The notes below the pieces were generated by a model that did not search any database, was not told the origin of the DNA, and saw only the letters and a list, made by a program, of their open reading frames with translations. Below are positions 2,842 through 58,382 of a DNA stretch of 64,000 nt, piece by piece. Source of the DNA: Sphingomonas sp. GTDB taxonomy: Bacteria; Pseudomonadota; Alphaproteobacteria; Sphingomonadales; Sphingomonadaceae. Position numbers and translations under genes: made by a program. The stretch lies in assembly GCF_041659925.1 (NCBI RefSeq), contig NZ_JBAZXI010000012.1, one strand, 5' to 3'. The stretch's first letter is position 1. Each line of letters starts with the position of its first letter.

Positions 2842-3726
2842 TTACCCGTTCAACACCGCCAACAGCGTGGTGCCGAGCTCGCTGGGCGAGTCCGCGACCT
2901 TGATCCCGGCGGCTTCCATCGCCGCGATCTTGTCCTCGGCGCCGCCCTGGCCGCCCGAGACGATCGCCCCGGCATGGCCCATGCGACGACCCGGAGGCGC
3001 GGTGCGACCCGCGATGAAACCGGCCATCGGCTTCTTGCGACCGCGCTTCGCCTCGTCGCGCAGGAACTGCGCCGCTTCCTCTTCCGCGGAGCCGCCGATC
3101 TCGCCGATCATGATGATCGACTTGGTCGCGTCATCGGCCAGGAACAGCTCGAGCACGTCGATGAAGTTGGTGCCGTTGACCGGATCGCCGCCGATGCCGA
3201 CCGCGGTGGTCTGGCCGAGCCCGGCGTTGGAGGTCTGGAACACGGCTTCATAGGTAAGCGTGCCCGAACGGCTGACAACCCCGACCGAGCCCTGCTTGAA
3301 GATGCTGCCCGGCATGATGCCGATCTTGCACTGGCCGGGGGTGAGGACACCGGGGCAGTTCGGGCCGATCAGCCGCGACTTGGAGCCCGACAGCGCGCGC
3401 TTGACCTTGACCATGTCGAGCACCGGAATGCCTTCGGTGATCGTGACGATCAGCGGCACCTCGGCATCGATCGCCTCGAGGATCGAATCCGCGGCGAAGG
3501 GCGGCGGGACGTAGATCACCGACGCGGTGGCACCGGTCTTGGCGACGGCCTCGGACACGGTGTCGAACACCGGCAGGCCGATATGCGTCGTGCCACCCTT
3601 GCCGGGCGTGACGCCGCCGACCATCTGCGTGCCGTACGCCAGCGCCTGCTGGGTATGGAAAGTGCCGGTTTCGCCGGTCATCCCCTGGGTGATGACCTTG
3701 GTGTTCTTGTCGACGAGGATGCTCAT
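2842..3726 (-). CDS. sucD: Succinyl-CoA synthetase alpha subunit
   Basis: [53 protein letters not shown]. Confidence 0.98.
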
Positions 3727-26145: not shown

Positions 26146-26175
26146 CCGGCCTCGCCCGGCTCAGGGCGAGGCCGG
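26146..26175. terminator. 12-bp hairpin between convergent M16 and S8-PLD genes
   Basis: CCGGCCTCGCCC-ggctca-GGGCGAGGCCGG. No U-tract, so function is inferred from position only. Confidence 0.45.
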
Positions 26176-29100
26176 GTCGACCAGGTCGAGCAGCAACGGC
26201 GCGACGATGCCGATCGCGCGGTTGATGATCGGGTGGTGCGGCGGATGGACCGGGTCGAAGCGCGCCACGCCGAGCGCGGGATTGGGCACCATCGGCGAGG
26301 AGAAGCCGGGCCATAGCGATATGTCGGTGCCGTCGGTCGGTGCCGGCACGCCGAGATGCTCGCTCCACAGCCGCATGCGGAACTGCTGGGCGAAGGTCAG
26401 CCCGCTCGCCGAGGTCTCCGCGCTCTCGCCGCGCGCGGCGAGCGCGATCAGCGGCGGGCTGGCATTGGCGTCGTCGAAGATGAAGGCATCGACCTCGCTG
26501 TCATGCTGGTAGCCGCGCCGGTTGCAGTTGGCCGATCCGATCACCGCCAGCTCGTCGTCGAACACCCAGCACTTCGAGTGGACATAGCTCTCCCGCCCGA
26601 AGCTGTTCGGCGCACTGCCGCGCGGCTTGTTGAGCTGGAAGACGTTGAGCTTGGCCGCGACATCGGGGCTCTTGCCGGCGATCACCGCGTCGATGAACTG
26701 CTGGCGATAGAATTGCGGGAAGATCAGCCCGCCGCTGATCTCGTTGCCGGGGATCAGGATCGTGACGTGATTCAACCGATCGATCACCCTGTTAAGAGCA
26801 CGGGCCGTGGCAAGGTCGATCAGATACTGGTCTTCGATATAAATGAAGCGCTGGGCGTTGGCGATCGCGGTGATCAGCAGCCGGCCGATGTCGCGTTGTT
26901 TGGGCGGGCGCGTGCTGCCGGCGACCGGCGTCCAGGTCCGCGCGACGATCACCGAGGCGCTGCCGCCGAACGGCGCGTCGGCGAGTGACGGGTTGGGGAT
27001 CGCCGGCGCGGGAACGCCGGTGATCGGGTCGCCGCGCAACGCGCCCTTGGCGGCGTCGATCGCGCGGCCGTCAGGGTGGTCGAGCCAGCGCTCGACAAAG
27101 GTGCGCAGCAGCTCGCGCGTCGCCGGTCCGACGATGCGGCAATGCGTGTCGTGCTGCGGATCGCTCGGCCCGACCGCGCCGTGCGTGCCGGTGCCGCAGC
27201 TGGTGATGTCGGGCATCACGCGGTTGGGGTTGAGGTCGAGCCCGCCGCAATAGCCGACCAGCCGCTCCCCATCGAACACCAGCAGCACCTTCTGGTGGTG
27301 CGCCGCCTTGATGCCCTGCAGCTTGCGCGCGATCTCGTCGCGGATCCGCCGCCACTCGGCATCGACCGCGGGGTCGAGTCGCGCCAGCGCGAGGACGCCC
27401 GACGCCATCTGCATCGCCGCCTCGACCTGCGCCCGGCTGATCGGCACCGCCCCGCCGTTGCGGCCGTCGACGATGCCGCCGCCATTGGACAGCGCGTTGA
27501 TCCGCCCGATATTCTCGCGGATCACGCCCGGCTTGCTGAGATTGTCCCATACCATCGCGCGGACCTGCACGCCGCGCGATACGGCGGCGCTGAGCAGCGC
27601 GTTGAGGCTGGTGGTGCAGTCACCGTGGCGCAGCGGGAAATTGTCGTACATGTCCCAGCCGAGCAGGTAGATGAAGGCCCGGTCGCCCTGCGCGGCGCGG
27701 ATGTCGTCGACCATCGCGTCATAGGTCGCGGCGCCGTCGACCAGCGCCTTGACCGCGTTCTGCGTCGTGGTCGGCGCATTGGCCGAGCCGCGCAGGATCG
27801 ACAGCCAGCGGTCGGGCCGCAGCACGACGGTCGAGATCGGGATGATCGGCGGGACGATCGGGGGAATGATCGGCGGGAAGTCCGGCGGCGCATCGTCGCG
27901 CGCGAGGAGATCGAGCATCGCCCAGGTCTTCGGGCCGATCACGCCGTCCCACTCGCTCGGCTGGCCGGGAAAGGCGATGTGCTGGAACGACAGGGTCGCG
28001 GCGGCGGTGTTGGGGCCGAAGATCGCGTCGACGGTGAGCGGGCAGCGGTCGATCGGGCTCTGCATCGCCCCCACGCGCCGGGCGTGGACGCGGTTGAGCT
28101 TGGCCTGCGCCTCGGCGACCGCCGGGCCGGACGAGCCGCGCCGGATCATCGGGTGCGCGCCCGGCGGCGGCGGCACCGACTCGTCGGCAGCCTCGCCGGC
28201 ATGGCGCAGGATAACGCTGTCGTGGAGCATCAGCCCGTCGGGCCCGGTGACGCGCCGCGCGAAGCCCATCGGACCGCCGCCGGGTTCGATCACGCGGACA
28301 TAGCGGCCGGGCAGCGGCCCCTCGGTGACGACGCCGAGCCGGCGCATCGCCCCAGCGCCGAGCAAGGCGGGGTCGAGGATGACGGCGACCCGCGGTGCGC
28401 GCGTCGGGCCGTGGCGCAACAGCACGTCGCCGGGGCGCAGGTCGCCGGCGAGGCGTTGCCCCTGCCAGGCGACGACGCCGATCGACCGGTCATCGGGATC
28501 GAGCGCGCGGCGCAGCATCGTCAGCGGCGGTTCGCCGGCGAGCGCGGTCGGAAAGTCGGCGGGCGCGACACCGTCGCTCAGCAGCCGCGTGGCGGCATCG
28601 ACAAGATCCTGGGTCATGGATTCTCCTTCGCGGGGTGGCGCGGGTGGACGGGGCGGGGTTGCGACCGGCGGGGGAAGCGCGCGCGCGCGCGCCACCGCTT
28701 CGGCGATGGCGAGCTGGCCATAGCCCCAGCGCGGATCGTCGGAGCCGGGCGCGGCGAGCGTCGCGAACAGCGCGCGGCGCAACGCCGTGACGCGCTGCGA
28801 CCCGGCGGCCTGCATCATCAACGCGAGCGTGCCGGCGACGTGCGGCGCGGCCATGCTGGTGCCGCTCATCCGCATATAGCCGGGCGTCGCGGTGGGATCG
28901 CTGCGCGACCTGACCGAGAGCACGCGCACGCCGGGCGCGGCGAGCAGCGGCTTGCGGCGGCCGTCGCGGGTCGGCCCGACGCTGGAGAAGCTGCCCAGCG
29001 GGTGCGCCGGATCGTGCGCGTCATAGGCGCCGACCGCAATGGTGCGCAGCGCATTGCAGATGCTGCCGGTGGTCGATCGCCGATCGGCGAGGTCGTGGCG

Positions 29101-30366
29101 GAACTGCGCCTGGCACTTGGGACAGGCGGCATTGCGCTCGATCCAGGCGTGCCAGCGGCCATCGACCACGTCGACGCCCTCGATCTCGATTTCCCACACC
29201 CCCGCCACCGCTTCGCGGCGCAGGAACAGGTTGATCAGATTGTCGCCGCTATTGGGGTCGGCGATGCGATGATAGAGATGACCGACCTCGCGCCCATCGG
29301 CGAGCCGCACCGGCGCATCATGGCCGAGCGCCGCGACCGCCGACGCGCCGTCGGGGCCGCGCATCCGGGCGGCGAACTCGTCGGCACCGTTATACCAGAT
29401 CTCGACCGATACCGGGATCGCGTCGCGCCGCGTCATGCGGAAGGGGAGCTGCGCGGTGCGCGTCTCGCTGATCCGGCCGGACATATGGACGTCGCGCGAA
29501 TAATAGTTGCCCGTGCTCTGCACCACGGCGGTGCCCGGGCGATTGATCAGCAGCCAGTCGATCGCGCGCTCGACCAGCAACCTCCCGGTATGCGAGCCGC
29601 CATGGCGGCCGAGGCTGAGGTTGAAGACCAGCGGCCGGTCGGCGGCGGTGCGCACGGCGAAGTCGATCGCCTCGAGCAGCTCGATCGAGTTGCCGAGGTC
29701 GCCGCCGCCGCTGCCGAGATGGATGAAGATCAACCCCGCCTCGGGCGCGATGCCCTGCGGCCCGCCGGCGCGGCCATTGCCGGCGGCGATGCCGAGGACA
29801 TGCGTGCCGTGCGCATTGGCGGCCGGCGTATAGCCGAGCGCGGCGAACGGATCGGGCTGGCCAAGCGCGCGGTCGATCGCGGCGGGTGTGTGGATGCGGC
29901 CATAGCCGTAGCGATTGGCCGGCACCGCCGCGCCGCGCTGGTCCCACAGGCCGAGCAGGCGGGTCGAACCATCGGCGTTGCGGAAATCGGGATGGGCATA
30001 GTCGAGCGACCAGTCGATCACGCACACCGCCGTGCCACGCCCGGTTTCGGGGAGGTCGGGCGGCCGGCGGACATCGTCGGGCGCGATATCGGGCGGGTCA
30101 TCGGCCTCGCCGACGCCGTGGCCGTCATGATGGATCGCCTCAAGCTCGCGGGCATAGTCGCGCGGCGCCTTGATGCTGGCGATCGCCGGATCGGCATGGA
30201 GCGCGCGGAGCGCGCTGCGCTCGGTGCGCGCCGTGGCGACGACACCGAATTCGGCGACCAGCCGCAACGCGGCGGGCGCGCGGGCGCCGTGGTGGAGCCG
30301 GACGACGACGGCCACATCGTCGTCCGGCTCACCCTCGGCGATCAGTTCCTGGAGTGCGGGATCCAT
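26161..30366 (-). CDS. Fusion: S8 subtilase (Csp-like) + unknown domain + peptidoglycan-binding domain + phospholipase D
   Basis: Triad VIDWSLD (D118), HGTHV (H186), GTSMAAP (S504). PG-binding IRRGSSGPAV..DAIFGPNT..DGVIGPKTW. PLD HHQKVLLVFD and YVHSKCWVFDD..IGSAN. Confidence 0.88.
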   Translation of the reverse strand: MDPALQELIAEGEPDDDVAVVVRLHHGARAPAALRLVAEFGVVATARTERSALRALHADPAIASIKAPRDYARELEAIHHDGHGVGEADDPPDIAPDDVRRPPDLPETGRGTAVCVIDWSLDYAHPDFRNADGSTRLLGLWDQRGAAVPANRYGYGRIHTPAAIDRALGQPDPFAALGYTPAANAHGTHVLGIAAGNGRAGGPQGIAPEAGLIFIHLGSGGGDLGNSIELLEAIDFAVRTAADRPLVFNLSLGRHGGSHTGRLLVERAIDWLLINRPGTAVVQSTGNYYSRDVHMSGRISETRTAQLPFRMTRRDAIPVSVEIWYNGADEFAARMRGPDGASAVAALGHDAPVRLADGREVGHLYHRIADPNSGDNLINLFLRREAVAGVWEIEIEGVDVVDGRWHAWIERNAACPKCQAQFRHDLADRRSTTGSICNALRTIAVGAYDAHDPAHPLGSFSSVGPTRDGRRKPLLAAPGVRVLSVRSRSDPTATPGYMRMSGTSMAAPHVAGTLALMMQAAGSQRVTALRRALFATLAAPGSDDPRWGYGQLAIAEAVARARALPPPVATPPRPPAPPREGESMTQDLVDAATRLLSDGVAPADFPTALAGEPPLTMLRRALDPDDRSIGVVAWQGQRLAGDLRPGDVLLRHGPTRAPRVAVILDPALLGAGAMRRLGVVTEGPLPGRYVRVIEPGGGPMGFARRVTGPDGLMLHDSVILRHAGEAADESVPPPPGAHPMIRRGSSGPAVAEAQAKLNRVHARRVGAMQSPIDRCPLTVDAIFGPNTAAATLSFQHIAFPGQPSEWDGVIGPKTWAMLDLLARDDAPPDFPPIIPPIVPPIIPISTVVLRPDRWLSILRGSANAPTTTQNAVKALVDGAATYDAMVDDIRAAQGDRAFIYLLGWDMYDNFPLRHGDCTTSLNALLSAAVSRGVQVRAMVWDNLSKPGVIRENIGRINALSNGGGIVDGRNGGAVPISRAQVEAAMQMASGVLALARLDPAVDAEWRRIRDEIARKLQGIKAAHHQKVLLVFDGERLVGYCGGLDLNPNRVMPDITSCGTGTHGAVGPSDPQHDTHCRIVGPATRELLRTFVERWLDHPDGRAIDAAKGALRGDPITGVPAPAIPNPSLADAPFGGSASVIVARTWTPVAGSTRPPKQRDIGRLLITAIANAQRFIYIEDQYLIDLATARALNRVIDRLNHVTILIPGNEISGGLIFPQFYRQQFIDAVIAGKSPDVAAKLNVFQLNKPRGSAPNSFGRESYVHSKCWVFDDELAVIGSANCNRRGYQHDSEVDAFIFDDANASPPLIALAARGESAETSASGLTFAQQFRMRLWSEHLGVPAPTDGTDISLWPGFSSPMVPNPALGVARFDPVHPPHHPIINRAIGIVAPLLLDLVDPASP

Positions 30367-30404
30367 CGCATTTCACCTTTCTCCAGGGGTACGCCGCACC
30401 AGCG

Positions 30405-30833
30405 TCAGCTGGCGCTTTTCTTCGCCGGGGCGCTGGCCGCGGTCTGCGCATCGATGCTCGCGGCAAGTGCCGCGATCGCCGCCAGCAGCTTGGCGTTCTG
30501 CGCGTCCATCTGCTTGCCGAACTGGGCGAAGCCTTCGGCCAGCCCAGCCTTCAGGTCTTCCGCCGTGATGCCCGATGCCGTCGGCGTCGGCTGGGGCGTC
30601 GGCCCTGGCGTGGGCGGCGGTGGCGAGGCGCCCTCGCCGCCGGCCGTGCCGACCTCGCTCGCCCGCTGCCGGCGGCGTGCGCTCCTGATCGAGCTTTGCG
30701 CGAGCACGACGCCGACCGGCGACATGCCACCGACACCCATCAGCAAGCCGGCCCGGGTCGCCGCCGCGCCCGTCACTTTCTCCTTGCGCGCGATCAGCGT
30801 GCCGACCGCGAAGGCGGTTGTACTGAAGCTCAT
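30405..30833 (-). CDS. Hypothetical protein (hydrophobic N-terminus, Pro linker, C-terminal helix)
   Basis: CAGGAG RBS; 142 aa; co-oriented within tight cluster. Confidence 0.75.
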   Translation of the reverse strand: MSFSTTAFAVGTLIARKEKVTGAAATRAGLLMGVGGMSPVGVVLAQSSIRSARRRQRASEVGTAGGEGASPPPPTPGPTPQPTPTASGITAEDLKAGLAEGFAQFGKQMDAQNAKLLAAIAALAASIDAQTAASAPAKKSAS

Positions 30834-30858
30834 CTTTCGTCTCCTGGCTTGCGACGGC

Positions 30859-31458
30859 TCACTTGGTGAGTGCCATCAGCATGACGAGCGGACCGATCCC
30901 GCCATCGCCGCCGAACATGCCGCCGCCGGAGCCGGACGAGCCGCCGAAGCCACCGCTGAGCAACAGGATCGGCAGCAGCTTCGACATCTGGTCGCCATTG
31001 TCGATCACGACATTCGGCGTCCCGGCGACGGTGGCGGTGTCGGTCGTGCTGAGCAGCGGCAGGATCATCGCCATCTGGCGCGATTCATCGAGCCCCTTCT
31101 TGAGCGCGTCGGTCGCCTTGATGCGCTCGGCGACCTCATGCTTGAGGCTGGCGCGCAGCTTGTGCGTCTCGCTCTCGAGAGCGCGGGTGCGTCCGTCGAC
31201 CGTGGTGATCGCCTTGCTGTTGGTGGCGATCCGCGCGTCGAGCCGGTGCGCCGTGGCGTTCAGTTCGGCCTTGGTGGCATAACCGCCCGCGACCGGGTGC
31301 GGCACGGGGTTGCCGCGCTTCGCGGTCGGCACGCGCGGCCGGAACATCGGCCGGCCGCGGCGGCGCACCGCCTCGTCGGATTCGAACGCCTCGTCATAGG
31401 CCTCATCGCTCTCGACATCCTCGAGCAGTTCGCCGAAATCTTCGAAGGAATTGTACAT
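30859..31458 (-). CDS. Hypothetical coiled-coil protein with acidic N-terminus and Gly/hydrophobic C-terminus
   Basis: AAAGGA RBS; EDVESDEAYDEAFESDE, YATKAEL heptads, LLPILLLSGGFGG..GPLVMLMALTK. Confidence 0.82.
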   Translation of the reverse strand: MYNSFEDFGELLEDVESDEAYDEAFESDEAVRRRGRPMFRPRVPTAKRGNPVPHPVAGGYATKAELNATAHRLDARIATNSKAITTVDGRTRALESETHKLRASLKHEVAERIKATDALKKGLDESRQMAMILPLLSTTDTATVAGTPNVVIDNGDQMSKLLPILLLSGGFGGSSGSGGGMFGGDGGIGPLVMLMALTK

Positions 31459-31476
31459 GTTGCTGTCCTTTCGCCG

Positions 31477-31923
31477 TCAGTGAGTGGTGGTCTGCTCGGG
31501 CACGGTAGGTCGCGGGCGCGGCGGGCCGAGCAGCCGCGCGCGCAATTCGAGATCGGGTCGCACCATCCCGGGCCGGCCGCGTCCGCGGCAGCTCGGGCAA
31601 TAATCATCCTCGCCCCAGCACAGGCCGCAGGCGCCAAGCGCGGCGGCGAGATCGGCGAGGCGCTCGCTGGCGCCACGATGCGCCTCGAACAGGCGGCGGG
31701 CCTGGCGCTTCATCGCCTCGATCCGGCTTTCCGCCTCGGCGAGCCGCTCGGCCAGCGCGAGCACCTCGTCGCCGAGATCGTCGGCAACGGGCTCGGGCAC
31801 GATGGCGCGCGCCTGCATCATCTGGGCGAGCATCGCGAGTTGCGGGTTGCTGCGCTGGAGGTCGGCGATCATCTGCTGGGCGAGCGCGGCCGGATCGGCC
31901 GCCGCGAGGGCCGGATCAACCAT
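31477..31923 (-). CDS. Hypothetical coiled-coil protein with CxxC..CxxC motif
   Basis: ATG 31923 with GAGGA RBS, 8-nt overlap with upstream stop; GACGLCWGED-x-x-CPSCRGRG-x-PG. Confidence 0.8.
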   Translation of the reverse strand: MVDPALAAADPAALAQQMIADLQRSNPQLAMLAQMMQARAIVPEPVADDLGDEVLALAERLAEAESRIEAMKRQARRLFEAHRGASERLADLAAALGACGLCWGEDDYCPSCRGRGRPGMVRPDLELRARLLGPPRPRPTVPEQTTTH

Positions 31924-32902
31924 AGACCGGTTCCTCTTCGTACCATTCGGCCTCGCCGAGCGACCAGGTCTCGTCATTCTCCCAGTCCTCGACCGCATAA
32001 TCCTCGCCGGCGACGACGAGCGGCGGGGCGGGCTGCGGCGCCGGTTCGGCCGGCGCGACATTGACCGTCACCGGGCGCGACTGGGCATTGGGCCCCCAGA
32101 TCGAGGGCGACAGCGCGAGCAGCGTGAGCAGCGTGTCGGTGCGCCCCTCGGCATCCTCGACATCGACGCCGAGCGCCTCGCCGGCCTCGGCGATGAAGCC
32201 GGGCATGGCCTCGGCGGATTCGTCATATTCGGCCGCCTCATGCGCCGAGCGGTTGGCGAGCGTGCCGAGCGCACTGAGCAGCATATGAACCGGGATCTGC
32301 TGGCCGCCGACCGGGATCGACTGGCGGCCGAAGCTGCCCATCGCGGCCGAGGACAGCGCCTGCAGCGTCTCGGGCCTGGCAAGCATGCCGATCAGCCCAT
32401 TGGCGCCACCGCCCCCACCGCCGGTGAGCATCGCCAGCGGACTGCCGCCGCGACCGCCCGCCGCGCCGCCACCGATCGCACCGAGCGCGCCGAGCGCGCC
32501 GCCGGCGCCACCGCCACGGACGGTCGAGACGAGATTGCTGACGGTACCGATGCCACCGCCGATCGCCCGCGCGGTTGGGTTGCGGGAGTGCGACAGGACG
32601 CTGCCGGCACCGCCGGCGACCGCGCCGGCAAGCGCGCCCCAGGGCCCGAGCGCCGAGCCGGCCATCGCACCCGACACGATGCCGGGGGCGGCCTGCTGCG
32701 CGAAATGGCCGACCGCGCCCGCCGCATGTTTCAGGCCGCGGCCGATATCGTCGAACAGGCCTTCGACATCCTCGGCGCTGGCGCCCTCGCCATAGATCTG
32801 GCGGACAAGGGCATCGAGCTGTTGCGCGTCCGCCTCGGCATAAGCGGGCGAGAGGCTGGCGCGAAGCAGGGGGTAGTCCTCATGCATGACGGGGTTCCTC
32901 AT
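31916..32902 (-). CDS. Glycine-rich hypothetical protein with amphipathic helix, glycine zipper and acidic C-tail
   Basis: EGLFDDIGRGLKHAAGAVG, GAMAGSALGPWGALAGAVAGG, tail EDWENDETWSLGEAEWYEEE. ATGA overlap with upstream gene. Confidence 0.82.
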   Translation of the reverse strand: MRNPVMHEDYPLLRASLSPAYAEADAQQLDALVRQIYGEGASAEDVEGLFDDIGRGLKHAAGAVGHFAQQAAPGIVSGAMAGSALGPWGALAGAVAGGAGSVLSHSRNPTARAIGGGIGTVSNLVSTVRGGGAGGALGALGAIGGGAAGGRGGSPLAMLTGGGGGGANGLIGMLARPETLQALSSAAMGSFGRQSIPVGGQQIPVHMLLSALGTLANRSAHEAAEYDESAEAMPGFIAEAGEALGVDVEDAEGRTDTLLTLLALSPSIWGPNAQSRPVTVNVAPAEPAPQPAPPLVVAGEDYAVEDWENDETWSLGEAEWYEEEPVYG

Positions 32903-33165
32903 TCGGGCTGATCGGGGTCAGGCTGATCTGGGTCGGGCTGATCGGGCGGCGCGGCGACGTGACGGTCGACCAGGGCGGCAAGGCTTTCGAGGCTGTCGAA
33001 CGCGCCGAGCATCCGCCCGCCAAGCGCGGCGACGGTGCCGCGCAGGACCGGCGCGCCGCCGGCGACCGGCTCGAGCCAGGCACGCACGACCAACGTGGCG
33101 GCGCGGCCACCGATGGTGAATTGCGAAGCGGCTGGGCCCTGATCGTCATGGTCGGCTCCGTTCAT
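32899..33165 (-). CDS. Small hypothetical protein (88 aa)
   Basis: LVVRAWLEP..LRGTV..FDSLESLAALV; C-terminal PDQPD repeats; coupled to next gene. Confidence 0.7.
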   Translation of the reverse strand: MNGADHDDQGPAASQFTIGGRAATLVVRAWLEPVAGGAPVLRGTVAALGGRMLGAFDSLESLAALVDRHVAAPPDQPDPDQPDPDQPE

Positions 33166-33221
33166 CTCGCTCGTCCGAGGGGACCTGAAATCCCGAGTCG
33201 GAGGCGTTGTGAACGAGGCCG

Positions 33222-33260
33222 GTCACGCCGCGATCACGGCGCCGTCACCGGATCATCACG
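33222..33260 (-). promoter_or_regulatory. Four GTGA-core direct repeats at exact 11-bp period; candidate SARP binding site
   Basis: Plus-strand TCAC at 33223, 33234, 33245, 33256, directly upstream of the five-small-gene operon. The fourth copy overlaps the BTAD stop codon. Confidence 0.65.
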
Positions 33261-34197
33261 GTTGCGCGAGCGCGCTGTCGATCAGGCCGATCGCGGTACG
33301 CATCTGGTCGCGCGTCGCGACAAGCACCTCGCGGAGGTCGCCATTCCCCGGCGTCGGCGCGGCCGATGCCATGGCCATCGGTCGTGCCGGCGCCGTCACC
33401 GCGACGCGGCCGCCCGGCGCGCAAAGACCGCGGTAAAGCGCGCTGGTTTCATCCATCGGCTCGACGCCGAGTTCGGCCGCAAGCACGGCGGCGCAGTGGC
33501 GATATTGCCGCAACGCGAGCGCGCGATTGCCGGTGCGGGCATAGCCGGTCATCAGCAGGCGGTGGGCATCCTCGCGCAGCGGCTCGGCGGCGGTCAGCGC
33601 GCGGGCGGTGGTGACGACGGCGCGCCAGTCGTCGGCGCGGGCATGGATGTTGGCGAGCGCATAGAGCGCGTCGAGCCGCAGACAGCGCAGCCGCTCGCGC
33701 TCGATCAACGCCCATTCGGCATCGACCATCGGCATGAAGTCGCCGCCATAACCGAGCAGCGCGCGGTGCAGCCGACGCCGCGCGGCGGGGTCGAGCGACA
33801 CCGTGCCCGACATGGCGGCGAGTGGTGCGGCGCGGCGTTCGAAAGCGAGCATGTCGACCCACAAGCCGTCGTCGAGCCGCAGCCGGACGCGCTCGCCGCT
33901 GGCCTCGACCGGGCAGGCGAGATCGCCGAACGCGCCCTTGATGCGATAGAGCGCGCTGGCCAGCGAATGTCGCGCGGCATCGCTCTCATGGTCGGGCCAC
34001 AGCGCCATGGCGAGCGCGTCGCGCTGTGCCGCGCGGCGCGGCGCGGCGAGCAGATAGCCGAACACCGGCCAGCAATTGGGCGGCACGGCGATGGTCGCGC
34101 CGCCGATCCGCGCGGCGGCGACAACACCCAATACCATAAGCCTCCAACGCGCCACGCAATCCCCCGGTTCGGTTTGGATTGCGACCCACCGGACCAA
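33256..34197 (-). CDS. SARP/AfsR-family transcriptional activator (wHTH + BTAD, no ATPase)
   Basis: RDALAMALWPD..ARHSLASALYRI; LWVDMLAFE; W-x-x-x-ERERLR; EPLREDAHRLLM..ALRQY..L-x-x-ELGVEP. TTG start uncertain. Confidence 0.9.
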   Translation of the reverse strand: MVRWVAIQTEPGDCVARWRLMVLGVVAAARIGGATIAVPPNCWPVFGYLLAAPRRAAQRDALAMALWPDHESDAARHSLASALYRIKGAFGDLACPVEASGERVRLRLDDGLWVDMLAFERRAAPLAAMSGTVSLDPAARRRLHRALLGYGGDFMPMVDAEWALIERERLRCLRLDALYALANIHARADDWRAVVTTARALTAAEPLREDAHRLLMTGYARTGNRALALRQYRHCAAVLAAELGVEPMDETSALYRGLCAPGGRVAVTAPARPMAMASAAPTPGNGDLREVLVATRDQMRTAIGLIDSALAQP

Positions 34198-37792: not shown

Positions 37793-38737
37793 ATGCGCAT
37801 GATCGATCGCGACGAAGTCCGCCGGCGGCTCAGTTACGAGCGCTGCATCCCGATCGTGCGCGAGGCGATGATCGCCTTTTCTTGCGGCGAGACGCGGCAG
37901 TTGCTGCGCTCGATCATCCCGCTGAGCGAGGGGCGCATGTTCGGGATCATGCCCGGCGCGCTGGCGCCCGACGGGCCGTTCGGGGCCAAGTTGATCAGCG
38001 TGTTCGCGGACAATTTCGCGCGCGGGCGGCAGTCGCACCAGGGCGTGGTGGTGCTGTTCGACCCCGAGAGCGGCGAACCGGTATGCGTCGCGCATGCCGG
38101 CGAGATCACCGCGATCCGCACCGCGGCGGCGAGCGCGGTGGCGACCGATGCGCTGGCGCGACCCGAATCCTGCCGGATGGCGGTCCTCGGCTATGGCGAG
38201 CAGGCCGCGACGCATATCCGCGCGATCGCGCGGGTGCGCCCGCTGGAGCTGGTGCGCATCTGGGGACGCTCGCCCGAGCGCGCGGCGGCGTTCGTCGCGA
38301 ACATGGAGGACGAGTTCGATTTCGCCATCGCGGCGAGCGACGAGGTGTGCGACGCGGTGGCGGACGCCGACATCGTCTGCACGGTGAGCGCCGCGCATGA
38401 CCCGATCCTCGCCGGCGCGTGGGTGCGGCCGGGGACGCACCTCAACCTGGTCGGCTCGAGCCATGCCGGAACGGCCGAGGTCGACAACGCGCTGGTGGTG
38501 CGATCACGCTTCTTCGTCGACAGCCGCGAGGGCGTGCTGGCGCAGGGCGGCGAGTTCCGCCGCGCGCGCGACGCCGGGCTGATCGGCGACGATCACATCG
38601 TCGCGGAGATCGGCGCGGTGCTGGCGGGGCGAGCGGCCGGGCGGCAGGCGGCCGACGAGATCACCGTCTACAAGTCGCTCGGCCATGTCGTGCAGGACCT
38701 GGCGAGCGTGTGGTCACTATATCGCGACGGGGAATGA
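37793..38737 (+). CDS. Ornithine cyclodeaminase / mu-crystallin family protein
   Basis: GAKLISV, ITAIRTAAASAVAT, VLGYGEQA, HLNLVGS, TVYKSLG. Confidence 0.92.
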   Translation: MRMIDRDEVRRRLSYERCIPIVREAMIAFSCGETRQLLRSIIPLSEGRMFGIMPGALAPDGPFGAKLISVFADNFARGRQSHQGVVVLFDPESGEPVCVAHAGEITAIRTAAASAVATDALARPESCRMAVLGYGEQAATHIRAIARVRPLELVRIWGRSPERAAAFVANMEDEFDFAIAASDEVCDAVADADIVCTVSAAHDPILAGAWVRPGTHLNLVGSSHAGTAEVDNALVVRSRFFVDSREGVLAQGGEFRRARDAGLIGDDHIVAEIGAVLAGRAAGRQAADEITVYKSLGHVVQDLASVWSLYRDGE

Positions 38738-38879
38738 GCCGGCGCGAGATGACCGGCGCGGCGGTGCCTCACGCCGCACGACAACGCGCGCGCGTGCCGC
38801 CACCGAAGGGAAATTACGGATAGCCGTGGAGAGGTGCCGTCAACCCGGACGGATCATCGATGAATCCGGGAGAACGGCA

Positions 38880-39323
38880 ATGATGTTCAAGGTTCTGGTG
38901 ATCGACGACTCGCTCACCGTGCGCGCAATTATCGAGCAGATACTGGAAAGCGAGCCGGACCTGAACGTGATCGCCTCGGCAAGCGACATCCCGTCCGCGC
39001 GCGCCATGATCGCGCAGCACTTCCCGAATGTCATCACGCTCGATCTCGCCATGCCGGGCATCGACGGCATGGCGTTTCTCGACGAACTGGCCGGCGGCCC
39101 GCATGCGCCCGTGCTGGTGGTATCGTCACACACCAAGCCCGGCTCCGACGCCGAGAGCGATGCGCTGGCGCTCGGCGCGGCGGGATGTTTCGACAAGGCC
39201 AAGCTGGTCGGCGCGGGCCGCAAGTTCGCAAGCTCCCTGCGCAAGGCCGCCCGGCGAACGTTGCCCGTGCCCAAGCCGCGGGTGCCGTGCGACCTCGCCA
39301 CGGAGCCGCCCCCCAGCGCGTAG
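38880..39323 (+). CDS. Stand-alone response regulator receiver (CheB N-terminus-like)
   Basis: KVLVIDDS, VITLDLAMPGIDG, VLVVSS, GCFDK; no output domain. Confidence 0.85.
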   Translation: MMFKVLVIDDSLTVRAIIEQILESEPDLNVIASASDIPSARAMIAQHFPNVITLDLAMPGIDGMAFLDELAGGPHAPVLVVSSHTKPGSDAESDALALGAAGCFDKAKLVGAGRKFASSLRKAARRTLPVPKPRVPCDLATEPPPSA

Positions 39324-52772: not shown

Positions 52773-54152
52773 TCACCGACTGACATATTGCCCATCCTTC
52801 TGGCGTTCGCGGCGGATGCCGTCGATCAGGTCGGCGGCGTGGATCACCGGCGGGGTGCGCGCGACCGCCATCAGCGCGGCATAGCGCAGCACGTTGATGA
52901 TCGCGCCGCCGGCCAGCTCATGGTCGCGCGCGATGCGGGTGAAGTCGATGTCGGCGGCGATCTCCACCCCGCGCGCCGCGCCGAAGGTGTCGCGCCACAG
53001 CCGCTCGCGCTGTTCGACATCGGGCATCGGGAACAGCACCGCCGACTGGAAGCGCCGCGCGAACGCCTCGTCGAAATGGCTCTGCTGGTTGGTGGCGAGG
53101 ATCACCACGCCGGGAAAATCCTCGAGCCGCTGGAGCAGATAGGCGATCTGCTGGTTGGCATGGCGGTCATTGGCCGAGCTGGCATCGGTGCGCTTGCCGA
53201 ACAGCGCATCGGCCTCGTCGAAGAACAGGATCCAGTTCTGGTGCTCGGCATGGTCGAACAGCGAGGCGAGGTTCTTCTCGGTCTCGCCAATCCATTTCGA
53301 CACCACGCGCGACAAATCGACGCGGTAGACCGGCACATCGACGCGCTTGCCGATCAGCGCGGCGGTCAGCGTCTTGCCGGTGCCCGGCCCGCCATAGAAG
53401 AGGCAGCGATAGCCGGGCTTGAGCCGGCGGCTGAGGCCCCAGTCATCCATCAGCGTTTCGCGATGCTGTTGCCACGAGACGATCATCTCGATCTGCTCGC
53501 GGACGCGCGTGTCGAGCACCAGATCGTCCCAGTCGAGCGGCGTGGTGATCGGCGTGGCGGGGAAATCGGCCGAGGCGCGGGCGACGAACTCGGCGCCCTT
53601 GAGCAGCAGGTGCATCCCCGGCGCGGAAACGCGCAGCGCGCCGGCCAGCGGCGGCTCGTCGGGGTGGCGCAAATCGATGACCAGCACGCCGCGCCGGACT
53701 AGCGGCGCATCGGGCGCGAACAGATCGTCGAAGGCGAGCCGCGCGATGCGATCCTCGCCGGCGAGCAGGAACAAGGCCGTCTCGGCGGTCGGCAGGAAGC
53801 CGGCATGCGATTGCCCGGTCAGCCCGCCAAATTCGGTGAAGCGCCGCCCGGTCGCCTGGTTGGTGAGCAGAAACGGGTCGAGCGCGGCGGGCGCGAGATA
53901 GGGCGCCAGCGCCAGAGCCAGGACGAGCCGCTCGGCCGGGCCGAGGTCTAGCGCGCGGACCAGTTCGGCATAGGGGCCGCTCGCCTTCGCCAGCGACGGC
54001 GGGCCGGGCGGCTCGGGAACGGCGTCCCCCTCCCCGCCTTGCCCGCCATAGGCGGCGAAGCGCGCGCCCATCACCGCCTCCAGCCAGGCGAGTTCGCCCG
54101 CGACGACGTCGCCATTGGCGGCGCGCCCGCGCGTTGGCGGCGCGGCGTTCAC
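52773..54152 (-). CDS. AAA+ ATPase (Afp15/Pvc15-like, eCIS)
   Basis: GGPGTGKT, VVSKWIGETEKNL, LFFDEADALFGKR, YLLQRLE, DEAFARRF. GTGA overlap with tape-measure stop; start assumed. Confidence 0.9.
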   Translation of the reverse strand: MNAAPPTRGRAANGDVVAGELAWLEAVMGARFAAYGGQGGEGDAVPEPPGPPSLAKASGPYAELVRALDLGPAERLVLALALAPYLAPAALDPFLLTNQATGRRFTEFGGLTGQSHAGFLPTAETALFLLAGEDRIARLAFDDLFAPDAPLVRRGVLVIDLRHPDEPPLAGALRVSAPGMHLLLKGAEFVARASADFPATPITTPLDWDDLVLDTRVREQIEMIVSWQQHRETLMDDWGLSRRLKPGYRCLFYGGPGTGKTLTAALIGKRVDVPVYRVDLSRVVSKWIGETEKNLASLFDHAEHQNWILFFDEADALFGKRTDASSANDRHANQQIAYLLQRLEDFPGVVILATNQQSHFDEAFARRFQSAVLFPMPDVEQRERLWRDTFGAARGVEIAADIDFTRIARDHELAGGAIINVLRYAALMAVARTPPVIHAADLIDGIRRERQKDGQYVSR

Positions 54153-57100
54153 CACGTCACCTGCAACGGCTCGGGCATCCAGCGATGGAAGATCGTCGCG
54201 AAGCTCCACGGCACGCGGTCGACCAGCACGTCGACGCCCTTGCGCTGGACCTGCAGCCGCCAGCTGTCATCCTCGTGGCGCAGCCGGCCGTCGCGTTGCA
54301 GGAAGGTCTCGCGCAGCCCGGCATGCGAGGTGCCGGCGATGATCGGCCAGTTGGCGATCACCGCTGTCATCAGCCCGTCGCACATTTCCAGATCGGCCGG
54401 CTCGGCGACAAACGACGGCAGCACCGGCTGCGCGCTGGGCAGACCGCAGAGCAGCTTGTTGAGCACCAGCTCATGCTCGGGCGCGTCGAGCCGCGCATCG
54501 ACCATATATTGCAGCAGGTGGACCGCGCGCGTCATCGCCTCGACATCGGCGATGCGCATCTTGCCCGCGTCATCGCTGGTCAGCACGCCAAGCCGCTCGA
54601 ACAGCGCCGGCAGATAGGGCGAGAACAGCACGAGGCCGGCATTGGCGATGAAGATCGGCTCGCCCGTCTCGGGTGGCGGCTCCTCGGTGGCGGGGTCGGC
54701 GGGCGGGGGCGGTGTGGTCATGGCGCGCCGCGAGGATGGCGGATCGCGCAGCGCCACCGCAAGCGCCGAATCGCCCGCCGCCTGCGCCAGTCGCGCGGCC
54801 TCGGCGCGCAGCGGCGAGGCCGCGCGCGCATCGCCGCCGGTGGATTCGCCGACGAGACGCGCCACGCCACGTCGCACGTCATGCTCCGGCGCGGCGGCGA
54901 GATCGAGCAGCAGCGCCCACAGCCGCGCCTGGTCGAGCCGCGGCGCGCCGAAGGTCGCGGTACGGCGCTGGGCGGCGGCGAGCATCATCGCGGCGTCGAT
55001 CCAGCCGCGCGCGGCGCGCGGCGCGAGCAGCTGGATGAGCCGGCCGAGCGCCTCGGGCGGCAACAGCGCGGCCCAGCGCGCGCGCGCCGTGGCACTGCCG
55101 CGCCGGTCGCGAAGATGCGCGACGAGCCGCACCTCGCCACGATCCAGCGCTTGCGCCAGCCAGCGCGCGAACAGCGCCGCGTCGCTGCCGCTTGCGCCGG
55201 CGCCGTCGAGCCACGCGATCAGCCGGTCGAGGTCGACGGTGCCGACGGCGCGCCCCTGCCCGGCTGGCGCCGGCGGCGGTGCCGATGGCGGCGGTGGCGC
55301 CACGGGCAGCGGCGCGCCCAGCGCCGCGACATCCAGTTCGGCACCGTCGAGCGCGGCGGCGGCGGCGCGCACCAGCAGGTCGCGCCGCGCCGCCGCGCCG
55401 CGCCCCGCGAACAGCCTGGCCAGCGGGCCGCCGCCGCGCGTCGCCCAGGGCACGAGCCGCTCGAACAGCCGCAGCCGCGCCGCCTCGTCGAGCGGCTCGA
55501 CCGCACGACGCAGCCGTTCGATCACCGCGTCGCGCGTCGCGCCGGCGAACAGCCACGCCAGCTCCGCGTCGCCGCGCGTCGCCAGCGCGGCGAGCAGATC
55601 GCGCGGCGCACCGCGATCGCCCGACCACCAGGCCGCGCGACCATGATCGAGCCAGTGCGCGAGCCGCGCGAGATCGTCGAACCGCTCGCCGGGCTGGCGC
55701 CAGGCGGTGACGAAATCGACCGTCTCGCCGCGCAACAGACCAGCGATCAGCGTCGCCGCATCGGCTCGCGGCATGCCCGGCGGCAGGTCGGGCACGAGGC
55801 AGGCGAGAATCTCTTCGGGCAACAGCCATTGCTGTAACCGCGCGACCAACGCCGGAATTTCGGCCGGCGTGGCACGCGCGACGCGGCGCAGCAGCGCGGC
55901 GAACCACGGTGCATCGGCGACGGCAATGTCGGGCAATTGCTCGCCCAGTTCCGACGGCCGTCCGGTGCGCAGGAACAGCTCGACGCGCTGGCGCAGATCG
56001 GCGTCGCCGCGCGTCGGTGGTGCGGGCAAGGCATCGAGCAGCGCGGCGGGTGGCGGCACACCGTCGAGCCGATCCGCGCCGTGGCGGACGCGCGCGGCGA
56101 TCTCGTCGCGCGGCGCCGCCGCGGCCTGGGCGATCCCGTCGAGCAGATGGCGGGCGAGCGCGTGCGGATCGAAGCGCGTGCCGGCGGTGCGCGCCAGCCA
56201 CGCCGCCGCCAGCGTCCAGACGAGCCGCTCGAAGCCCGCCGCGTCGCGCGTCACCAGCGGCGTCACGGCGTGGAGTCGCGCCAGCGCGGCGAGCTGCGCG
56301 GCGACCGCCTCGGCATGCACCGGATCGAGCGCGGCGAGCAGCCGCTGGCGATCGTGCGGGGCGAGTTCGGCGGCGAGCCGGTCGAGCGCACCGGGTTCGG
56401 CCGCGGCGCGGCGCAGTGCTGCCGCCGCGTCATCGGCGGGCCCGGCGGCGGCTAATTCGGGCGCGAGGACAGCGGCGAGCGCCTCGCTGCCCGCGACCGG
56501 GCCGGCGCGCAGCACCGCCGCGACGCGCGCGCGCATCGCCGACTCGCTGGTGCCGGCGACCCCGGCCAGAGCGCGCAACAGCCGCGTCAGCCAGGCGCGC
56601 CGCTGGAAGCGTCCGGTCGCGGCGAGCAGGTCGGCCAGCGCCAGGCGACGCAGCAATCGCGCGAACTCCGGCGCGGTGCGGGCGAGCAGCGGCGCCGCGT
56701 CATCCAGCAGCGCGAGCACGTTGAGCTCGGCGGCGATGCTCGCGGCGCTCGACGGCTTGAGCGCCGCGAGCAGCCGCGCGAACAGGTCGGCATCGATCTG
56801 CCGCCACAACGCCGGTCGGTCGCCGTCGCGCAACAGGGCGAGCAGCGGCGCGACATCGCCGGCGCGGGCCGCGGCGAGCGCGCGCGCCTCTTCCGCCCGC
56901 ATCGGCACGGCGGCATCGGCCGGGGTGATTTCGTCGAGCAGTTCCTCGAGCACGCCGGGGAGTGACGGGCGCACGCCGGTGCGCGCGCCGGCGCGTGCCG
57001 CGGCTTCCGCCAGCAACCGTACCAGCGCGACATAGGCGATGCCGGCGCGGCTCGCCTCATGCTGCAACAGATGCGCGACGAAGCGCCGCCGGTTGAACTG

Positions 57101-58333
57101 GGTGCCGGGATCATGCAGCAGATAGGTCAGTGTCAGCCAGCGCAGCACCGGCCGGGGATCGGCGGCGAACAGCGGCTTCGGCGCGGCCCGCTCGCTCGCC
57201 TCGATCTCGTCGAGCAGGGCAATGATGACGTCGGCCGCGTCGGGATCGAGCCGGCGGACGAGCCCGGCGAACAGCCGGTCGTCGAGCAGCCGCACCAGCG
57301 CCTGGAGCGCCGGCCGGTCGTCGGCGAGGCGGCGGACCAGCGCAACCAGCGCGCCATAATCGCCATCGCGTGCCGCCTTCAGCGCGGCGGCCGTATCGAT
57401 ATCGGCGGCGGCGGATTCTCGCGGCGGCGGCGACACCTCGCCAATCTCGTCGAGCAGCTCGGCAAGGACCAGCGGGAGGGTCGAGCGCAGCCCGACGCGG
57501 ACCCGCGTCATGGCGAGCGCATCGCCGAGCAGGCGAAGCAAGGCGGCATAGTCGATGTCGAGCCGTGCCGCCTCGCGCGCCAGCAGGTGCGCGAGGAAGC
57601 GGCGGCGATTGAACTGCGTGCCCGCGTCGCGCAGCAGGAATTCGAGCGTCGCGACCCACAATAGCCGTTCGAGCGCGGGTTCGGCGAGCCGCGCGAGCGG
57701 CGGCGGCACCGGGCGGGCACGGTGCGCGAGGATGACGTCGGCGATCAGCGCGAGGATCACCGCCGCGTCGGCCGGCGCCAGCGTGGCGAGAAGTCGATGC
57801 AGACCGCCAATCCCGATCTGTACCACCAGCCGTTCGAGCACTTGGCCGCTGCGGGCATGGCGGCGGAGCAATGCGACCAGCGCGTCGGGCTGTTCGGCGA
57901 GCAGCGTCGCGAACATCGCCGCCGGGTCGAAACGCTCGGCGCGCGGCGCCCAGGGCGCGGTGCCGGTGACGAGCCACGCGGCAAAGCGCTCGCGCAGCAC
58001 CGCGGCGGGATCGATCAGCCGCGCCTCGTCGGACGGGGCGACGCGCGCGCGGTGCAACGCCTCGCCCAGCGCCTCGCCGAGCGCACGCTCCAGCGCGGCG
58101 AGCGCATCGCTTTCGAGATGGTCGGGCCGCACCTCGCCAAGGTCGAGATCGATCCGTCCGAGCCGCAACCACGCGTCGCGCGGCGCGAGCGCGTCGCACA
58201 CCCGTTCGAGCACCGGCGGTAGCAGCCGCCACGCCAGCGTTTCGAGCCGCGGCCGCAGCGCGAGCGCCGCATCGGTATCGGGCAACGCGGCGCGCAGCTC
58301 GATGCGGCCGATGCGGTGCGTCGCGCCCGGCAT
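54149..58333 (-). CDS. Contractile injection system tape measure protein (Afp14-like)
   Basis: C-terminal IANAGLVL..PYL..LF, LVLNKLLCG, LRETFLQRDG-x-L, DVL-x-D-x-x-PWS..WM..L-x-V-x-W. N-terminal HRIGRIEL; long Ala/Leu/Arg helical body. Confidence 0.88.
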   Translation of the reverse strand: MPGATHRIGRIELRAALPDTDAALALRPRLETLAWRLLPPVLERVCDALAPRDAWLRLGRIDLDLGEVRPDHLESDALAALERALGEALGEALHRARVAPSDEARLIDPAAVLRERFAAWLVTGTAPWAPRAERFDPAAMFATLLAEQPDALVALLRRHARSGQVLERLVVQIGIGGLHRLLATLAPADAAVILALIADVILAHRARPVPPPLARLAEPALERLLWVATLEFLLRDAGTQFNRRRFLAHLLAREAARLDIDYAALLRLLGDALAMTRVRVGLRSTLPLVLAELLDEIGEVSPPPRESAAADIDTAAALKAARDGDYGALVALVRRLADDRPALQALVRLLDDRLFAGLVRRLDPDAADVIIALLDEIEASERAAPKPLFAADPRPVLRWLTLTYLLHDPGTQFNRRRFVAHLLQHEASRAGIAYVALVRLLAEAAARAGARTGVRPSLPGVLEELLDEITPADAAVPMRAEEARALAAARAGDVAPLLALLRDGDRPALWRQIDADLFARLLAALKPSSAASIAAELNVLALLDDAAPLLARTAPEFARLLRRLALADLLAATGRFQRRAWLTRLLRALAGVAGTSESAMRARVAAVLRAGPVAGSEALAAVLAPELAAAGPADDAAAALRRAAAEPGALDRLAAELAPHDRQRLLAALDPVHAEAVAAQLAALARLHAVTPLVTRDAAGFERLVWTLAAAWLARTAGTRFDPHALARHLLDGIAQAAAAPRDEIAARVRHGADRLDGVPPPAALLDALPAPPTRGDADLRQRVELFLRTGRPSELGEQLPDIAVADAPWFAALLRRVARATPAEIPALVARLQQWLLPEEILACLVPDLPPGMPRADAATLIAGLLRGETVDFVTAWRQPGERFDDLARLAHWLDHGRAAWWSGDRGAPRDLLAALATRGDAELAWLFAGATRDAVIERLRRAVEPLDEAARLRLFERLVPWATRGGGPLARLFAGRGAAARRDLLVRAAAAALDGAELDVAALGAPLPVAPPPPSAPPPAPAGQGRAVGTVDLDRLIAWLDGAGASGSDAALFARWLAQALDRGEVRLVAHLRDRRGSATARARWAALLPPEALGRLIQLLAPRAARGWIDAAMMLAAAQRRTATFGAPRLDQARLWALLLDLAAAPEHDVRRGVARLVGESTGGDARAASPLRAEAARLAQAAGDSALAVALRDPPSSRRAMTTPPPPADPATEEPPPETGEPIFIANAGLVLFSPYLPALFERLGVLTSDDAGKMRIADVEAMTRAVHLLQYMVDARLDAPEHELVLNKLLCGLPSAQPVLPSFVAEPADLEMCDGLMTAVIANWPIIAGTSHAGLRETFLQRDGRLRHEDDSWRLQVQRKGVDVLVDRVPWSFATIFHRWMPEPLQVTW

Positions 58334-58382
58334 CACATGCCGCCCCGATCGGCCACGCGTGATCCATGGGCCCGGCAAACGC

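Follow-up and report, generated by a model that had tools for sequence, protein, structure and literature searches.

A four-box sGTGAy array as the probable operator of a small SARP regulator, upstream of an S8 peptidase-phospholipase operon in Sphingomonas

In the window (the whole 64-kb stretch of Sphingomonas DNA that was analysed), a gene encoding a small SARP regulator, an array of four phased direct repeats and an operon of co-oriented genes follow one another on the minus strand (Table 1). The first operon gene encodes an 88-aa protein, the homologues of which are all hypothetical proteins without names, and its stop codon shares the sequence ATGA with the start codon of the gene that follows. 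It is followed by genes for proteins of 328, 148, 199 and 142 aa and by a terminal gene (26161-30366) encoding a 1401-aa protein in which S8 peptidase, PG-binding and PLD domains are fused. Neither PADLOC nor NCBIfam assigned a family to the five small operon proteins. The window also contains the distal part of an eCIS, including its tape measure and AAA ATPase genes, while the sheath, tube and first genes of this system are located at C12:117-123 kb, beyond the window; the SARP gene lies 19 kb from the eCIS locus.

Table 1. Positions of the features discussed in the text (window coordinates unless a locus handle is given).
Feature	Position	Strand	Remark
Small SARP gene	33256..34155	minus	winged-helix ODB, BTAD and extra C-terminal helix
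Putative operator	33221..33260	minus	four direct repeats, consensus sGTGAy, exact 11-bp period
GTGA cores	33259-33256, 33248-33245, 33237-33234, 33226-33223	minus	
-10-like hexamer CACAAC	33206..33211	minus	assigned by conservation
Invariant CGACTCG	33194..33200	minus	alignment of sphingomonad loci
First operon gene	32899..33165	minus	88-aa product, no known family
Remaining co-oriented operon genes	26161..32902	minus	
eCIS AAA ATPase	52773..54209		inside window
eCIS tape measure	54149..58444		inside window
Terminator-like hairpin	L009:4868-4900 (= L002:2398-2430)		
eCIS-side GTGA(C) arrays	L033:5303, L053:5111, L055:5110, L058:3579, L077:3838(-), L079:4890, L029:4950 (= L003)		

The likely start of the SARP gene is GTG 34155, an equivalent GTG opening the orthologue in L006; it yields a protein of 299 aa, and the longest ORF (313 aa) begins at TTG 34197. 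Pfam BTAD was detected at residues 115-256 of the protein (E 2.5e-26), and Pfam Trans_reg_C gave no score at E<=0.01. By phmmer, residues 18-252 could be aligned with the SARP domain of AfsR (8hvr, E 1.4e-9), EmbR being aligned as well, and the NCBIfam AfsR model spans residues 4-246 with a score under the cut-off of that model. The AlphaFold2 model of the regulator, built with 17 homologues as input (mean pLDDT 87.6), shows a winged helix (beta/alpha/beta) and, C-terminal to it, a helical domain, and the top six Foldseek matches of this model were the AfsR SARP domain and EmbR (E 1e-9 to 2e-8), with target-normalised TM scores of 0.75 for 8k60_J and 0.73 for 8hvr_I, both of the AfsR SARP domain. 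The DNA-contacting residues of AfsR, namely W74, T88, R92 and R94 (PMC10936776), align to W67, S81, R85 and K87 of the 313-aa ORF, and among the 17 homologues the contact W and R are invariant and the position of T88 is occupied by S or T in all. Considering both the match to the AfsR fold and the conservation of contact residues, the upstream protein is a small SARP with an intact DNA-reading head. An extra C-terminal helix, predicted at residues 274-297 of the 299-aa protein (33259-33340) after a disordered linker, is kept in the 13-member SARP clade described below and absent from the aligned actinobacterial small SARPs; it may serve as an oligomerisation or sensing element.

A preliminary description of this DNA had reported four direct repeats at an 11-bp period on the minus strand, ending 56 bp before the ATG at 33165, and both statements hold: the letters read exactly as given there, and the final heptamer stops at 33221, from which the ATG lies 56 nt on. 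At the other end, the array reaches into the regulator gene, whose stop codon (TGA, 33258..33256) sits within the first GTGA core. Phased GTGA, even in three copies, appeared in none of 100 dinucleotide-preserving shuffles of the 64-kb window. In the 4.78-Mb genome (66% G+C), the array is the sole exact occurrence of three or four GTGA at period 11, and a match to at least 15 of the 16 core letters was likewise obtained at this one site only when the 4.78 Mb were scanned. The four inter-core spacers share a mutual identity of only 33%, and thus the array is built on conserved cores and differs from a plain 11-bp tandem repeat. On the minus strand at 33252-33281, in the 3' end of the SARP gene, there is also a weak sigma70-like pair, TCGACA-18-GATGAT (9 of 12 matches), which overlaps the first GTGA box.

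Homologues of the SARP are scarce in the genus (2 of 36 genomes, 33-35% identity), and related loci were collected from a scan of GTDB species genomes, which gave a regulator-based sample of 80 loci. All of the eight nearest ones (L004-L011, 33-93% identity), among them the beta-proteobacterium Pseudaquabacterium terrae and a Caldilineales MAG (Chloroflexota), possess four GTGA at an exact 11-bp period, and relative to the last base of the stop codon the array starts anywhere from 3 nt ahead to 99 nt past it. In every locus the GTGA boxes are on the sense strand of the gene that follows, and the cores are invariant at 33-56% protein identity while the spacers are unrelated between lineages. 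In a maximum-likelihood tree of 84 SARP domains, the regulator falls into a 13-member clade (SH-aLRT 96) that spans Sphingomonas, one beta-proteobacterium and one Chloroflexota MAG, and every one of the 13 members is array-positive (three or four boxes). No exact GTGA arrays were found in the large STAND-type SARPs of the same set. Elsewhere in the ~0.6 Mb of locus DNA, other exact three-copy arrays were detected only in the small-SARP loci L051, L065, L075, L079 and L070 and, distant from the gene end, in L050, L073 and L077, the last of which faces a divergent eCIS operon. In the Caldilineales locus (L010), a second perfect tandem array, consisting of three copies of GTGAATCAGTA, is located at 3378-3410, ~100 nt past the four-box array, and the contig ends shortly after it.

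The same arrangement was recovered from the side of the target. In all four target-based loci (L084, L086, L088 and L089), a BTAD gene lies ~100-125 nt upstream of the homologue of the 88-aa gene, and the gap between the two contains four GTGA at 11 bp in L084, L088 and L089 and three in L086. The genes that follow are ordered as in the window, i.e., a small protein, proteins of ~340, 146, 208 and 160 aa, and the S8 peptidase fusion, and the operon gene order is common to L004-L006, L011, L084, L088 and L089. Beyond the cassette the flanks differ by locus, with a TonB receptor, BioY and others, from which it follows that the regulator gene, its array and the operon move together as a unit. The C-terminus of the terminal S8 fusion varies, with PG-binding and PLD domains in the window and an LCAT/PGAP1-type lipase in L084, L088 and L089; such a C-terminal domain swap resembles the pattern of a polymorphic effector.

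By anchoring 14 lineages on the last GTGA and counting the bases offset by offset over the following 34 nt, we found a Y at offset 12 and an A at offset 13, each in 13 of the 14 lineages, and comparable conservation was found at no other nearby offset in this set. The hexamer so defined begins exactly 11 nt past the last GTGA, which corresponds to 8 nt past the heptamer GTGACCG (GTGAYSS), and its forms among the lineages include CACAAC (window), CAAGAT, CAGAGT, CATAAC, TAAAAA (L010), TACAAT (L112), TAGCGT and TATCTC. Promoters dependent on SARPs have been described as carrying direct repeats spaced by 11 (or 22) bp, with 8 bp between the 3' repeat and the -10 element, which at afsS reads CACTGT (PMC10936776). 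CACAAC in the window is a weak -10 element. No sigma70-like -35/-10 pair was found downstream of the array, and the stretch at -35..-30 reads ATCGCG, which is not a -35 element. With repeats at 11 bp, an 8-bp gap to the -10 and a poor or absent -35, the layout is the textbook one of a SARP-dependent promoter, as far as sequence can tell.

The array region may also be separated from the regulator gene. In L009, the stretch that separates the SARP stop codon from the array contains a GC-rich 12-bp hairpin with UUUUUU after it (centroid energy -22 kcal/mol); it was confirmed by folding, and a consensus terminator scan gave no report of it. Since this terminator-like hairpin stands between the SARP gene and the array, the array region of L009 must hold a promoter of its own. 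In the Sphingomonas genome, no terminator was found between the SARP gene and the operon, and thus read-through from the SARP gene could contribute to operon expression there.

The specificity of the pattern was examined in the reverse direction by scanning metagenome contigs with the strict pattern, which was matched in at least 80 loci. Among the matches listed, a SARP gene was found by tblastn and profile HMM near L112 only, and 79 loci had no SARP nearby. Among the same matches, 94 of the 100 arrays turned out to be plain tandem repeats of 11 bp in which the spacers are repeated too, and of the six arrays with diverged spacers only that of L112 is followed by a YA hexamer (TACAAT) at the right offset; this array overlaps the end of the SARP gene, as in the window. 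The bare GTGA/11-bp pattern is not diagnostic of a SARP, because most of the metagenome matches are plain tandem repeats without a SARP gene, and the preponderance of such repeats also means that the low SARP count is not counter-evidence. A SARP operator is recognised instead by the combination of conserved cores, free spacers, three to four copies and a -10-like hexamer at +11.

An additional element was observed close to the predicted start site. The heptamer CGACTCG, invariant among sphingomonad loci, is placed at ~+1..+7 if transcription starts near 33199 (+/- 2), a position predicted from conservation, and it lies 6-7 nt past the -10-like hexamer in the window, L004-L007, L084, L086, L088 and L089. 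In L008 and L009 it is found between the last repeat and the -10-like hexamer (centre ~-18), and the beta-proteobacterial and Chloroflexota loci are without it. On the bottom strand it reads CGAGTCG, which contains GANTC and fits YGAKTCG, the consensus of the methylated GANTC boxes read by GcrA in Caulobacter (PMC9976885). Published GcrA boxes lie either in the promoter spacer (-20, -30) or just past the start in a +5..+30 class (PMC9976885), and the box in the window, at its predicted position, is at the edge of the latter. The Sphingomonas genome encodes GcrA (142 bits) and one N6/N4 methyltransferase (PF01555), and GANTC is under-represented in it (7945 observed vs ~14945 expected). Judging from the identity of the motif, the promoter may be co-controlled by methylation and GcrA; we know of no description of a GcrA box combined with a SARP array. 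A conserved 5'-UTR hairpin in the CGACTCG region was also considered and rejected (RNAalifold -0.54 kcal/mol, no covariation).

We consider that the array is most probably the cognate operator of the small SARP and, together with the hexamer downstream, forms an activator-dependent promoter for the operon from the 88-aa gene to the S8-PLD gene (probability about 0.8). This reading is supported by the uniqueness of the array in the genome and by comparisons among genomes, in which the array is conserved with the SARP and fixed in its offset to the -10-like hexamer. In accordance with the same comparisons and with the promoter geometry, the SARP operator signature proposed in the preliminary description finds support, as does the placement of the repeats just upstream of a -10 element, for which a candidate hexamer lies 8 bp past the 3' heptamer in 13 of 14 lineages; that the repeats should be kept upstream of homologous operons, a check suggested there, is borne out by the array found throughout the SARP clade (13/13). 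Mechanistically, each sGTGAy box would be bound by one SARP protomer, and the protomers would sit next to one another along a single face of the helix. If CACAAC is set at -12..-7, the two proximal boxes would fall at ~-38..-35 and ~-27..-24, and the two protomers bound there might stand in for the missing -35 element and bring in the sigma70 holoenzyme, in the manner of AfsR at afsS, while the two distal boxes may provide cooperative binding or contacts to the alpha-CTD.

Several other explanations have to be weighed against an activating operator. The SARP might bind the array and nevertheless act negatively or in cis, as a block to read-through, a repressor or an autoregulator, with the promoter of the SARP gene driving the operon. 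Such a role would suit the overlap of the first box with the SARP stop codon, which is seen in the window and in L004-L007, and the lack of a terminator between the SARP gene and the operon. However, characterised SARPs are activators with exactly such a layout (PMC10936776), and the array is detached from the stop codon in L008, L009, L010, L011, L084, L088 and L089, lying past the terminator-like hairpin in L009; in 13 of 14 lineages it also stands at a constant 11 nt from the conserved -10-like hexamer. We therefore regard a negative or cis-acting role as improbable.

The array could also be read by a protein other than the SARP, the gene of which would then be a mere neighbour. Phased direct repeats are also read by OmpR/PhoB-type winged-helix proteins, and a receiver-domain protein that might represent a response regulator of this type is encoded at 38685..39323. 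Yet Pfam detects no DNA-binding domain in this protein, its gene is absent from the displayed flanks of related loci, and in three phyla the array accompanies the SARP gene amid otherwise different neighbours, all of which makes a different reader quite improbable. It is also conceivable that the array is a chance or decaying 11-bp tandem repeat devoid of function, considering how common plain sGTGAy tandem repeats are in metagenomes (94 of the 100 listed arrays, spacer identity >0.5). In contrast to such repeats, the array has cores that are invariant while the spacers have fully diverged among lineages at 33-56% protein identity, its copy number is fixed at three to four and so is its offset to the -10-like hexamer, and it was yielded by no shuffle and occurs just once in the genome. 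A functionless repeat is strongly disfavoured and has hardly any probability left.

The proposed operator closely resembles the AfsR-afsS system of Streptomyces coelicolor with its afs box (PDB 8HVR, 8K60). The window SARP shares with AfsR the ODB plus BTAD fold and the residues that contact bases and backbone, and direct repeats one helical turn apart are found at afsS and at small-SARP promoters of the ActII-ORF4 and DnrI type, as here. At afsS as in the window, 8 bp separate the 3' repeat from a weak -10 (CACTGT vs CACAAC), and in both the repeats overlap a missing or poor -35. At afsS, R92 of AfsR contacts T-38 and T-27 (PMC10936776); in the window, the two proximal GTGA boxes have their T at -37 and -26 when the hexamer is set at -12..-7. 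There are also differences: the host is the alphaproteobacterium Sphingomonas and not an actinomycete, in which SARPs have mainly been characterised (PMC10599522); there are four repeats, not two, with the core sGTGAy; the window SARP has an extra conserved C-terminal helix; the target is an operon ending in an S8 peptidase-phospholipase fusion and not an antibiotic cluster; and the predicted start site carries an invariant box with a GANTC site. What is new here is the host lineage, the four-copy sGTGAy core, the uncharacterised target operon and the GANTC box. Because the mechanism itself is textbook, the result extends known biology and overturns nothing. It shows that the architecture of Streptomyces SARP promoters has been kept, to the base in spacing, in a regulator clade that has spread through Proteobacteria and Chloroflexota, and it provides a defined cis element open to mutation, together with a named regulator, for an operon with six otherwise uncharacterised products, which induction of the SARP should switch on for functional study.

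BTAD is listed as a domain of eCIS 'shell' regulators, for which no cis element was defined (Geller et al. 2021, PMC8213781), and the window SARP is likewise encoded by a small BTAD gene in an eCIS-bearing genome. The proximal eCIS genes are on the minus strand (C12:117000-123000), the first of them starting at C12:122943, and their products comprise a 388-aa protein, a 597-aa sheath and two tube proteins. An AT-rich region of ~0.6 kb precedes the first eCIS gene; the eCIS promoter region (C12:122345-123571) contains no phased GTGA, and the suggestion that the same motif might be present at the eCIS promoter does not hold in the Sphingomonas genome. A search for the phased motif elsewhere, which had also been proposed, was equally negative: in relaxed genome-wide scans (four boxes with >=14/16 letters or three boxes with >=11/12; control periods 8, 10, 13 and 14), the counts at period 11 were no higher than those at the control periods, the operator site aside, and no second convincing site was found in the 4.78 Mb. 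Weak regulon candidates at C11:85919, C9:63887, C21:18394, C16:8716 and C5:137483 were rejected for wrong geometry or context. Furthermore, CIS_TMP was found in the genomes G061, G062 and G065 and is absent from G063 (a complete chromosome) and G064, both of which carry the SARP-array cassette without a CIS tape-measure gene. Because the eCIS promoter and the rest of the genome lack further sites and the cassette occurs in CIS_TMP-negative genomes, the SARP does not seem to be the eCIS switch here, in which respect it differs from the BTAD shell regulators; it looks like a cluster-situated regulator for which the genome offers no strong target besides the operon.

Related small SARPs elsewhere, however, adjoin GTGA(C) arrays of 11-bp period that immediately precede Pvc16_N, sheath and tube genes (Table 1), and these arrays occur in Actinomycetota and in Alpha- and Gammaproteobacteria. 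In the literature searched for a link between SARPs and contractile injection systems, only the remark on BTAD as a shell domain was found (PMC8213781). The GTGA(C) arrays are a candidate operator of the BTAD shell regulators of Geller et al. that flank eCIS loci. A broader proposal, according to which the promoter in the window receives dual input, from the cassette-borne SARP through its four boxes and from the methylation and cell-cycle system (CcrM/GcrA) of the host through CGACTCG, and the GTGA/11-bp array is the general cis element of eCIS BTAD regulators in Actinomycetota and in Alpha- and Gammaproteobacteria, is rather doubtful; if true, it would provide one portable on-switch for eCIS operons and the protease-lipase operon. 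Finally, in three loci from actinobacterial MAGs, three GTGAC boxes at an 11-bp period (L051:4749, L065:4722 and L075:4757), with TATCTC 11 nt past the last box, lie between a small SARP gene and a gene for an AcrB/RND transporter of 1030-1050 aa, suggesting a SARP-type promoter ahead of an efflux pump gene.
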